From assembly GCA_000002435.2 (NCBI GenBank), contig CM018793.1: 64,000 nt of DNA; one strand, given 5' to 3'. The notes below the pieces were generated by a model that was given only the letters and a program-made list of their open reading frames with translations, was not told the origin of the DNA and made no database searches. Below, piece by piece: positions 17,679 to 21,866 of this stretch; within the stretch, counting starts at the first letter, position 1; the number at the start of each line of letters is the position of its first letter. The DNA comes from Giardia intestinalis (Eukaryota). Position numbers and translations under genes: made by a program.

Positions 17679-20600
17679 TCACATCGACGTAAGAAAATCG
17701 ACGAGGTCTTCCGAATCTACCGAACACCTTACCATATTGGCAAAGATACTGTCAGGCTTGTGAAACAGCACGCGCGGAGGACCCTGCTCGACTATTTGAC
17801 CACCGGCCATAACAATAACCCTATCCTGGTTGCAAACAGTGCGGAGTCTATGGGCTATCGTAATAATGATCTTTTGCTCCTTATATGCCCCCAGGGCATC
17901 CTGGATAGCCGTCTCTGCGGCACTATCCACGTGTGCTGTTACCTCGTCCAATAGGATGACTTCTGTGTCTCTGAGCAGCGCGTGGGCTACGCACAGAAGC
18001 TGTCGCTGTCCGAGCGAAAGGTTGCTGCCGTTATCAAAAAGGTGGTAGTCAAGTTGCTTTGACTGAGCTCGAAGTATTCACGCAAGTGCGTCTTCTCCAA
18101 GACACGCCACAGCTCCTCATCTGAGAACCGTCTATCCCCGGAGAGATAGGCTCGCAGTGTCCCGGAGAAAATAAAAGGATCCTGTGGTATCAGCGTCACC
18201 TTAGACCGTGCCTGATGTAAGCCCATCTTCAGCAGGTTCAGGCCATTCAAGAGAATCTCAGACCCGCCTCTGGCTCGACAAGTCTGAGAATCGCATTGAC
18301 AAGGGATGACTTGCCAGACCCTGTCTTTCCTATGATTGCAACGCGCTCTCCCTTGCCGCTGTGAATGAGATCCCATGAAGCACAACTGGCAAATGCTGTT
18401 GATAGCGTAGCGAAAGATCTTGCACAATAAGCCCGAGAGTAGAGTCTGCCGGCAGCTACTTGGGCTATGCGGAGCGCTTGTACTCTCTGGTTCAAGAGTA
18501 GCGTACTCTGCTACCCTTCCACGCTGGCCATAGAAAGATCCATTGCAACAATCCCGAAGCACATATCTATTAACATCATGACAACATCAAAGCCATTCAT
18601 GAGTACGGTACCTGAAAATATCTCTCCGTTAGCAAAAGAAGACGTTATGATAGTGGACACAGTAACTACTGCGGACACACAGATAGATAGAAGGGTAGTT
18701 GTAAAGTGTAGCCATCTGTAGAGGGAAACATCCATCCAAAATGCCGCCTCCATAGCTAGGACGGCTCTGGCGTAGTAGCTTGCCGCCTGGGCTTCATACC
18801 TATACGCTCTAAGAGATGCCAGGTTGTAGTATGTGTCTAGAATAAAGTTACACACATGGCTATTCAAGAGGGAGGTGGTGCGTCGCAAGAGGGGCGACAC
18901 AGCACGAAATCCCATGAACATCCAAAGGAACAGTCCCAGCAAGGGAACTAGCACAAACGTAGATGGCCAGCTCATCAGCAAAGTGGCCAGTAATGAACCC
19001 AGCACAAAGATGGAGTTCTCACATGTCGCTGCTAGGCCATTCTTCACCGTCAAATCACATGTACCTGTGTCTGCTATCAGGCGGTTAAGGATCCGTCCAA
19101 TGGGGTGTGCGTCATAGAACGACATCGATGTATTGATAAGCCCCTCTTCCATGCTGTAGTACAGCTTCTCTGCCGCCTTCCGTGTGAACAGCATATAGAA
19201 GAGCTGCCCAACGAAGAGGATCACCATAAATGCAAAGGAGAACGACAAGAACAGACCTATGCAACCACCTGTGCTCAGCCCTAGCCGCTGTCGGTCCAGA
19301 AGTTGATGAGCAGCGACGCCAGTTGCAACATAAGTATACAGAAGACCCACATGACAACATAAATGACGAATTCCAGGTCCCGCCTGCCTTGAACCATAGC
19401 TTGTAATATTTAGAATTAACAGATCCCAGCTCCGTGCATTCTCCTCCTTAAGCACTGCTGCCATTCGATGCACTTGATAGTCAGAGTCGTGTTTCTCTAC
19501 AGCCTGTATAGAGGTTAGTGAGGGACTTCTGCGACGGGCAGAGGAGAACAGTCTATATCTACGCTCTCTGGTGTCACTTCTTTGATCGTGCCAGCATCTA
19601 TAAATAGCACCTTTAAGCACGAACGAAAGTAATGCATCTGATTGGTCGCCAACACAACGGTCTTCCCCCTTGCAAGTAGATACCCTTTGATGGTCTCGCT
19701 CCATAACGACTTGCAAACATGAGAGTCCAGAGAGGCGAACGGATCATCAAACAAGTAAATATCCGCGTCGGAGTAGATGGCCCTGGCAATTGATAATCGA
19801 GCTTTCTGTCCTCCAGACAGTGTCACACCGCGGCTGCCAACAAGTGTGGCAAGCCCCCCTGGTAGTTCAGAAAGGTCCCCATCCAGACAGGAGAGCCGAG
19901 TTGCAAGCTGCATTTTCTCTTCATCATAGGGTAAGAATAACTGGATATTGAACTGTATGGTCCCTGTAACACGGACGGCACCTGCGAGCAGTATGCAATA
20001 CGGCCCACCGAGTGTATATGAGCGGAATCCGAACTACTTGATGTCGAAAGGGCCACCTCTCCCAGAATAGCCAATAGGAGCTCGACTTCCCGGAGCCAAC
20101 ACAGCCCCCCACCCCAACCAGGCACCCCCTAGGAATACTAAACTGCAAGGATCTAAGAACTGGCACGCACTCTGTCTCTAATTCGCGTACGGAAGACTGA
20201 AGTACGGTAATCTGCCTATGCATGGCTGCTAGCTCAACATAGTACTTCCTTAATCTGTCAGTTTGAGAGGAGCACCTGGAGGCATCAGGCGTTGCCGGCT
20301 GGGGCTTTGGAAGTAGGAGTCCATCGGGGGCATGGGGCTCGTCGCCCCTAGGAGAACCAGCGGCTGCCAGGGACGGCGTCTCGATCGGACCGTCCATTCC
20401 GCACCTACCAGCACATCTTCAGGAGCCTCTTCTCGAGTGCATTGTATGCGCCGAGCAGTTTAGAGCCGCCCTCATGGACAGCAATCTTCTGTTCCTGGCT
20501 TGTAAGATTGCTGTTAGAATTGAAAGAAGAGGGTATGTGTCTGTGGCACTGTCTCCCCCACGAATAACTCGGGTTGCCCACTGTCCATATAACAAACTGA

Positions 20601-21866
20601 GCCGCTGTGGAGTCGTTCTTTTCATGGAGCTTCCCACAATAATCGCCCTCGGGCAGAGTAAGAACCTGCCTCGCTCTGTGGCAGCTGACAATTGCAGAAC
20701 TCAATGAAGAGATCAAGTACGGTAAATCGATAATGACGCGAGCAAATATAGTGAATAGATACGCAGCCGTATAGGCGTGGCCGTGTAAGGTGCCCGCTTA
20801 GCACTGACAAGAAGGCACAGAGAAGCATGGCGGGCCAAGTCATGTAGCCCACCAAGTGGATGCATGATCGCGCAAGGGTCATCCTTCCCACGTATATGAG
20901 CTCTTGACGCCTACGTGGGTGCATTCGACTCCTGCACAGCTCCTGATAATTATAGGCCTTTATCACCCGTAGCCCTGCTATTACTTCGGTGACATGCCGT
21001 GCACGGACATCGCGCGCAGCAGCATATCGTTTTTCCAGAAAGAGATTGTACAGGGTCAGGAGACTAATGAAGGGGAGCGTAACGAGGATGCCCCCAAATC
21101 CAGCAAGAGCACTCCTATCAATTTGAAAAACCAGGAATAAAACAATCATCAACAACTTAAGTGGCACCGCTATCATCCTTGGTATGTTCGACACTAGATT
21201 AGAAATGGAGCGGGCATCACCACTAATGAAAGTAATCACCGCCGGAGATAAAACGTGCGTCGCTGCAACATTGGGAATGCGTATGAGCTTCTTGTACAAT
21301 AGCATCGAGATGGCCTGGGACACACGGATGCTCTGCTCAGCACAGATTGTTGATGCAATGGACTGGAAAAACGCCGTCAAAAGCTGTGCAACAAGGTTAA
21401 TAACTATCCATACCCATGCCTCGCGGAATAAGCCAACAAGCACACTGCTACTAGAGTCGCGGAGGTCAGCTATATGACCAGTATCTAAGACCTTAAGGAG
21501 CTCTGTCATAGTCTTTGGTTGCACAAAAGAAAGAAATACAGCAAGTCCCATTAGTATGGAAGACACAGCAAAGAAGGGCCAGCTCGTCTTCATGACTAGA
21601 GAGCCGATTCGGGCGGGTCTAGCAGTTGCCCGTGCCACCGCCAAAGTGCCTTCCAGCTTAGTCAAGACCTTACCATAATTCATGTTTGTTGGCAGAGAAG
21701 GAATGTCTGATGGTTTTAATACCCTCTGCTTTCTCGCTCTTGCCACGAATGGTGTCATCCATAGAAATGTATAGTAGAGGATGAATGGGCAGCGCTCGCT
21801 CTGCGGCCGTGCACTGGGAAACGCAGTAAACTCGTAGCTCTCATATCGCTCAGCCCTATCTGCCAT
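17679..21866 (-). pseudogene. ABCC/MRP-type full-length ABC transporter (TMD1-NBD1-TMD2-NBD2) disrupted by at least 8 frameshifts/stops; pseudogene or locally error-laden sequence
   Basis: Collinear fragments on the minus strand, in order from N- to C-terminus:
- 20622..21866: MRP-like N-terminus RCPFILYYTFLWMTPFV plus TMD1.
- 19924..20397: NBD1 Walker A, GCLVGVGGCVGSGKSS.
- 19823..20125: SLLLAILGEV…GRIAYCSQVP, the Q-loop region.
- 19515..19913: LSGGQKARLSIARAIYSDADIYLFDDPFASLDSHV, i.e. signature, Walker B and D-loop.
- 18511..19716: TMD2.
- 18247..18495: NBD2 Walker A, VAIIGKTGSGKSSLVNAILRLVEPEAG.
- 17987..18562: ILLNGLNLLKMGLHQARSKVTLIPQDPFIFSGTLRAYL.
- 17679..17951, extended upstream in frame: KQLDYHLFDNGSNLSLGQRQLLCVAHALLRDTEVILLDEVTAHVD…IIITIAHRLRTV, i.e. 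signature, Walker B, D-loop and H-loop.
Every junction requires a +/-1 frame change. The one near 18075 is a 1-nt indel next to AGTCAAAGC. Confidence 0.7.

Follow-up and report, generated by a model that had tools for sequence, protein, structure and literature searches.

An apparently shattered ABCC4-like transporter gene in the Giardia intestinalis WB reference: very probably a truly split gene overlaid by a merged-template consensus artefact

We analyzed a window of 64,000 nucleotides from Giardia intestinalis (GenBank assembly GCA_000002435.2, contig CM018793.1), which matches chromosome 5 of the 2020 PacBio WB reference. An MRP4-like short ABCC transporter locus, corresponding to the old gene model GL50803_103946 plus a 3' ABC open reading frame (ORF), lies on the minus strand of this window, with its ATG at 21866 and its stop at 17679 in three-frame translation. 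A sequence-only reading of the window had described a complete ABCC/MRP-type transporter shattered into at least eight frame fragments and had favored recent pseudogene decay over sequencing error. Our comparison of assemblies points elsewhere: the locus is very probably a really split gene on top of which a merged-template consensus artefact was laid down.

Results

Private one-base deletions at haplotype differences

To follow the reading frame through the locus, we used a protein-to-DNA aligner that tolerates frameshifts, written for this analysis, with the contig L002 and the protein P0023 as references. Against L002, a near-intact orthologue, the alignment ran from Met1 through to the final residue, at 71.5% amino acid identity and with 14 frame changes; against P0023, the intact orthologue from assemblage E, there were 16 frame changes at 85.9% identity. 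Neither alignment contained an in-frame stop. Collinear alignment to ABCC proteins was thus obtained, and the fragmentation that had been noticed is real, but its extent had been underestimated: 14-16 frame changes correspond to about 15 pieces.

The locus was then compared with a panel of about 20 Illumina contigs (L003-L021, from several SRA accession series), a 454 contig of isolate DH, the 2007 Sanger gene model and the outgroup L002. This showed that 18 of the 20 indels are private to the window assembly. All 18 are deletions of a single nucleotide, and neither a private insertion nor a longer private indel was found. The missing base is present at all 18 sites in L003-L021, in DH and in L002. 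Alignment of the window with L003, an Illumina contig, gave 18 mismatches besides the 18 gaps; all of them lie inside 20788-18070, and 21639-20789 and 18069-16277 are free of differences. The 1-nt indel that had been placed near 18075 is present and is located at 18070 (TTCG^AGCTCAG).

When the mismatches were polarised with DH and L002, only 2 of 25 were derived in the window, and the others were natural alleles found in DH, L019 or the outgroup. The block 20788-20749 first appeared as a cluster of substitutions with a 2-nt gap; realignment against L019 resolved it into three 1-nt gaps at single-nucleotide polymorphisms (SNPs) and one substitution, after which about 0-1 private substitutions were left to the window. 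Restoring the 18 bases left exactly two frameshifts and no stop, and gave a 3' segment of 949 codons that is free of stops and runs to the native C-terminus. A single intact ORF of ~1400 amino acids, which the sequence-only reading had named as the expected product of polishing if the indels were assembly errors, was not recovered, since two frameshifts survive. The frameshifted 191-aa ORF specific to the window had no relatives among 5.8 billion proteins, and no ABCC ORF of the window is on record in a collection of 15 billion proteins.

The AI-type contigs form two haplotype families that diverge by about 1% at the locus. One, H1 (L003/L009), agrees with the 2007 WB model; the other, H2 (L019, L020 and L021), is partly DH-like. 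Checked by hand, 17 of the 18 private gaps fall on SNPs that distinguish H1 from H2-type contigs, with DH counted among the latter (Table 1). In an unedited MAFFT alignment, with SNP columns counted in AI-type Illumina contigs only, 15 of the 18 gaps fell on SNP columns, against a background of 44 in 2819 columns (1.56%; Fisher p = 4e-26). At H1/H2 SNPs without a gap, the window is a mosaic, carrying H2 alleles at 20524, 20180, 20145, 19896 and 19516 and H1 alleles at 19598, 19480, 18452 and 18319, interleaved with the gaps. The locus therefore displays the features of a merged-haplotype artefact: indels seen in the long-read assembly only, indels at differences between templates, and a mosaic elsewhere. 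In the ORFs of AI-type Illumina contigs, too, alleles of H1 and H2 are combined in many ways, which is what the collapse of two copies by assemblers should produce.

Taken together, these data make it highly likely that the shattering is not biological and is a locus-specific consensus artefact in the reference assembly. Because the artefact is locus-specific, the rest of the window is clean. As an internal quality control, the adjacent gene GL50803_00114497 was compared with DH and showed 27 substitutions and 0 indels over 3189 bp; because it is free of indels, the general sequence quality is taken to be high.

Two shared deletions and the split of the gene in assemblage A

The remaining two indels were confirmed independently, whereas the other 18 were not. 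At codon 357, a 2-nt deletion changes the ancestral ...CTT AAA GCA... to ...CT- -AA GCG.... It is carried by the window, by 13 of 13 WB-type Illumina contigs, by the DH 454 contig and by P0003, the protein of the 2007 WB Sanger model, and it is missing from L019 and from the assemblage E, B and other orthologues. At codon 471, the window shares a 4-nt deletion with every AI-type Illumina contig, whereas DH retains the bases (CGCT). Because the two deletions are common to independent data, we conclude from these sequences that a few short polymorphic indels genuinely disrupt the full-length pump in assemblage A. Together they split the gene into a 5' piece of ~356 codons and a long 3' ORF covering nucleotide-binding domain 1 (NBD1), transmembrane domain 2 (TMD2) and NBD2. 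Biologically, the locus is thus unremarkable: an ABCC4-like gene split in one lineage. Comparison across isolates and assemblages, which had been suggested as a check, was run and showed the gene to be split in assemblage A, whereas its orthologues in G. muris and in assemblages B and E are intact. The pseudogene reading accordingly holds in part: two real indels disable the full-length pump, but the shattering by the other 18 is in all likelihood an assembly artefact.

The full-length contigs L009 and L016 differ from P0023 by three lesions only, namely the 2-nt deletion at codon 357, the 4-nt deletion at codon 471 and, at codon 579, a TAG. Downstream of this TAG they contain an 814-codon ORF, and the H1 contigs L003-L016 are the source of the 814-aa ORFs.

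Within assemblage A the disabling indels still vary: L019 (L019:1137-1606) is without the codon-357 deletion, and DH is without the 4-nt deletion. A small-deletion cluster of their own, around codons 231-268 (L001:10690-10791), is found in DH and in other AII-type contigs (P0004-P0006). This implies several segregating loss-of-function alleles in assemblage A, with recombination among them.

An ORF of 814-1018 codons is uninterrupted in all natural haplotypes of assemblage A, and the independent lesions gather in the 5' third. In the last 814 codons (window 17679-20130), no stop or frameshift was found in the natural haplotypes (L003-L021 and P0143). Relative rates were counted with assemblage B as the outgroup: codons 1-356 had 26 A-specific and 6 E-specific amino acid changes, and codons 601-1403, where change is not accelerated in assemblage A, had 29-30 A-specific and 24 E-specific changes. 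Because of this difference between the two parts, the 5' third may be released from constraint. Natural SNPs in the 3' ORF comprised 11 synonymous and 11 non-synonymous changes, where 70% non-synonymous changes were expected (p = 0.04). The NBD1-TMD2-NBD2 ORF may still be maintained, as a retained truncated ABC protein, or may be too young to have decayed.

Domain architecture and orthologues

As the sequence-only reading had proposed, the locus is a collinear four-module ABCC transporter on the minus strand with all of the motifs that it had named; three-frame translation, motif mapping and Pfam agree on this point (Table 1). Walker A, signature, Walker B/D-loop and H-loop motifs are found in both NBDs. 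The NBD2 signature is degenerate (LSLGQ), and is the same in the orthologues. Pfam recognized two ABC_membrane and two ABC_tran domains in the conceptually repaired product, as it did in the orthologue P0023, and the domain and motif content of this product is far beyond chance. Judged by sequence, the predicted product has the module order, subfamily affiliation and NBD motifs of a full-length ABCC protein. An uninterrupted full-length reading frame is lacking, with 14-16 frame changes in the sequence as given and two after restoration of the 18 bases.

Intact orthologues were found in assemblage E (isolate P15; P0023, "ABC transporter, putative", 1403 aa), in assemblage B (P0024, 1404 aa; GS ESU44507.1, 1411 aa) and in another divergent Giardia (P0026, 1411 aa). 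The nearest homologue in G. muris is the intact MRP1 (P0027, 1399 aa). L002 is the Logan contig ERR3333378_2875 (P0025), from a divergent assemblage, and its gene neighbors are those of the window. It shares about 66-71% amino acid identity with assemblage A. Its orthologue contains one frameshift at L002:3892-3901 (...LYNIF|LEKRY...), which yields ORFs of 276 and 1101 aa and may be genuine or may stem from the assembly of sample ERR3333378.

The best solved-structure matches of the intact orthologue were ABCC4/MRP4 (PDB 8sx7 and 8bjf; E = 4e-128), and the top PDB sequence matches were all ABCC proteins (ABCC4, ABCC2, ABCC1, YCF1, ABCC3, ABCC5, SUR and CFTR). Outside diplomonads, the best database matches were ABCC4 at ~30% identity. 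On the basis of best matches rather than a formal phylogeny, the locus is placed nearer to ABCC than to other ABC subfamilies. Its length (1399-1411 aa in the intact proteins, compared with 1325-aa MRP4 chains) and its best matches likewise assign it to the predicted short, ABCC4-like form without TMD0. Homology suggests that the intact orthologues act as ATP-driven exporters of the MRP4 type.

Table 1. Positions of the transporter modules, lesions, private deletions and flanking genes in the window
Feature	Position	Strand	Basis or remark
Whole ABCC4/MRP4-like locus, TMD1-NBD1-TMD2-NBD2	17679..21866	-	collinear with intact orthologues from start to stop; Pfam
Codons 1-356: N-terminal ABCC motif and TMD1	20800..21866	-	single frame in the window; no difference from the Illumina contigs
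N-terminal ABCC motif CPFILYYTFLWMTPF	21747-21791	-	motif mapping
NBD1 core	19725..20109	-	motif mapping
Walker A-1 GGCVGSGK	20086-20109	-	motif mapping
NBD1 signature LSGGQKARLSIARAIY	19773-19820	-	motif mapping
Walker B-1/D-loop	19725-19760	-	motif mapping
TMD2	18520..19440	-	mostly inside the 401-aa ORF at 18511-19716
NBD2 core	17844..18330	-	motif mapping
Walker A-2 GKTGSGKSS	18304-18330	-	motif mapping
NBD2 signature LSLGQRQLLCVAHALL	17973-18020	-	motif mapping
Walker B-2	17925-17960	-	motif mapping
H-loop IAHRL	17844-17858	-	motif mapping
Real lesion 1: 2-nt deletion, codon 357 (~20799)	20798..20800	-	Sanger, 454, Illumina
Real lesion 2: 4-nt deletion, codon 471 (20467)	20466..20468	-	Illumina comparison
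Codon 579: window CAG (Gln), ancestral H2-type allele; H1 (L003-L016) TAG	20145	-	contig comparison
Patch of 18 private 1-nt deletions	18070..20788	-	contig comparison
Private deletions adjoining, with SNP alleles at the gap	20788 (C/T), 20786 (G/A), 20778 (G/A), 20513 (A/G), 20499 (A/G), 20425 (C/T), 20396, 20080 (T/C), 19970 (T/C)		
Private deletions adjoining, with SNP alleles at the gap (continued)	19523 (T/C), 19439 (A/G), 19372 (G/A), 19291 (A/G), 18518 (G/A), 18454 (T/C), 18355 (C/T), 18263 (C/T), 18070 (C/A)		
Vps4a, KAE8305545.1	15326..16690	+	exact match; flanking synteny anchor
GL50803_00137699, 275 aa, KAE8305546.1, downstream neighbor	16718..17545	-	exact protein match
GL50803_00114497, KAE8305547.1, divergently oriented neighbor	22036..25224	+	exact match

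Neighboring genes and a second copy

Twelve ORFs of the window are exact and ordered matches to KAE8305538-KAE8305567. The three accessions that flank the locus (KAE8305545, KAE8305546 and KAE8305547) are consecutive, and for this reason no protein appears to have been deposited for the ABCC interval, as far as accession numbering tells. The same neighborhood was found in the Illumina contigs L003-L013 and in the DH protein order, and the syntenic, Illumina-derived Logan contigs L003-L016 span the ABCC gene and the 275-aa ORF and include the 3' end of Vps4a. GL50803_00114497 (window 22001-25224) has a G+C content of 67-69%, while most of the window is at about 45-50%, and this high G+C content gives rise to long spurious ORFs in other frames, such as 22089-23219 and 22318-22752. 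Its conserved counterpart in L002, the divergent contig, has ~69% nucleotide identity.

A second copy is annotated in the same assembly on a scaffold of 1,485,438 bp, where KAE8301233.1 is followed by KAE8301234.1 (137692). KAE8301233.1, a "Xenobiotic-transporting ATPase" of 747 aa, is the same as the 3' 747 codons of the H1 "EAA" haplotype. It is annotated as protein-coding and reads without interruption; the corresponding part of the window copy contains 11 one-base gaps (19523 to 18070), and that copy apparently has no deposited protein. The protein 137692 is a paralogue of the window's 137699, from which it differs at 6 of 275 residues. Both the 3' ORF of the ABCC gene and the hypothetical 275-aa gene next to it therefore appear to be duplicated on another chromosome, so that the genome plausibly contains two templates; H1 and H2 may be the paralogous copies on chromosomes 5 and 1, or alleles.

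Many independent Illumina contigs end exactly at window position 16277, inside Vps4a, or 17258, inside 137699. The latter end is no more than 3 nt from the first amino acid difference between 137699 and 137692. This suggests that the ends at 17258 mark branching of the assembly graph at boundaries of the duplication or of paralogue variants. Identity between Vps4a and Vps4b was considered as the cause of the ends at 16277 and was rejected, because the alignment of the two proteins shows differences in 240 of its 517 columns.

Discussion

We propose that reads from H1 and H2 were merged into one consensus at this locus. Where the two templates differ, the consensus would mostly have dropped the base and chosen no allele, which would produce the 18 one-base deletions; at the remaining variable positions it would have taken one allele or the other, which would produce the mosaic. 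The WB assembly was made with HGAP, Quiver and PBJelly, together with an Illumina correction rule of 50%/10 reads (PMC7000408). This clean-up could have missed the gaps if the missing base was split between two alleles; alternatively, short reads could align with a mismatch to the undamaged copy, so that the gaps survived. The exact software step at which the bases were dropped is one that we infer. Indels at heterozygous positions have been described from merged-haplotype PacBio consensus with early FALCON (Korlach et al., 2017; PMC5632298).

Several points weigh against this account. It was derived from a comparison of assemblies, not from reads, and the compared assemblies probably come mostly from other AI isolates or other WB lines. 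Gap 20396, alone among the 18, is not polymorphic in the panel. Five gaps persist in the SNP-dense interval 20788-20499, where H2-type short reads should map uniquely, and with a PacBio coverage of ~200x few random consensus errors of the ordinary kind would be expected.

A genuine pseudogene of very recent origin and rapid decay, with all 14-16 frameshifts acquired by the WB chromosome 5 copy after inactivation, had been preferred to sequencing error in the sequence-only reading on the strength of intact ORFs elsewhere in the window. We reverse this weighting and regard such decay as very unlikely. It would agree with a locus truly disabled by two shared indels, with the accelerated protein change in the 5' third in assemblage A (26 A-specific and 6 E-specific changes), with an ABCC region ~4x more divergent from DH than the neighboring gene, and with flanking genes that are error-free in the same assembly. 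However, neutral decay should leave substitutions, and it was rejected because 18 private deletions stand against ~0-1 private substitutions once the window is polarised with DH and L002. Moreover, every private change in length is exactly a 1-nt deletion, with no insertions and no longer indels; 16 frameshifts are accompanied by no in-frame stop; the private deletions occur in no other assembly or called ORF; and neutral decay cannot yield 17 of 18 deletions on SNPs between two other haplotypes. We also rejected programmed frameshifting and editing, as the 16 shifts are without a common slippery motif and all are missing from the DNA of other isolates.

Generic random long-read errors unlinked to haplotypes, whether homopolymer miscalls or a low-coverage or PBJelly-filled stretch, also seem very unlikely to us. 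The errors are all 1-nt deletions inside a 2.7-kb patch, and the authors of the WB assembly reported PacBio frameshift errors at homopolymers and the filling of gaps with raw reads (PMC7000408), both of which would suit this explanation. Yet about half of the deleted bases lie in runs of 2-3 nt, close to the chance value, and none lies in a long run. Homopolymer-type PacBio/454 error was rejected because the deleted bases are outside long runs and beside an identical base no more often than by chance. Furthermore, 17 of 18 hits on SNP sites are not expected at random, and the patch holds natural alternative alleles, not random substitutions.

One-base deletions could also have arisen in vivo at heteroduplex mismatches, through recombination or gene conversion between copies in which the mismatched base was excised, but we give this very little credence. 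Such a process fits deletions at inter-copy SNPs with a mosaic elsewhere, and at a locus already non-functional upstream the scars would be tolerated. To our knowledge, no mechanism gives -1 deletions at most mismatches, and canonical mismatch repair converts mismatched bases, it does not delete them. No such scar was seen in ~20 independent contigs, and the pattern is that of a documented software artefact (PMC5632298). If heteroduplex excision were nevertheless true, the window would hold a scarred recombinant allele, a previously undescribed outcome of gene conversion.

The main value of recognizing a merged-template consensus at this locus lies in curation. The widely used WB reference (GiardiaDB, GCA_000002435.2) appears to contain a locally corrupted copy of an ABC transporter gene, and variant calls, expression estimates and pseudogene counts at the ABCC locus will mislead. 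A genome-wide screen could look for this signature of one-base gaps at differences between duplicated or heterozygous copies. As the putative exporter is intact in assemblages B and E but split in A, the locus could bear on how the assemblages handle drugs and xenobiotics. A literature search on GL50803_103946 or on a Giardia ABCC pseudogene found nothing relevant.

The pattern in the window resembles that described by Korlach et al. (2017; PMC5632298) in that one-base indels lie at haplotype differences, occur in the long-read assembly only and create false frameshifts. It differs in its setting, since the earlier cases arose with FALCON in diploid birds, whereas here HGAP and Quiver were applied to a tetraploid protist and the templates may be paralogous. 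With regard to the transporter itself, human and vertebrate ABCC4/MRP4 proteins share the TMD-NBD-TMD-NBD order in one polypeptide of ~1330-1400 aa, the absence of an N-terminal TMD0, and Walker A/B, signature and H-loop motifs in both NBDs. Identity to these proteins is only ~30%, and the interrupted frame in Giardia assemblage A leaves no full-length transporter. Within Giardia, P0023 and the assemblage B cluster are orthologous to the window locus and, unlike assemblage A, have uninterrupted ORFs.

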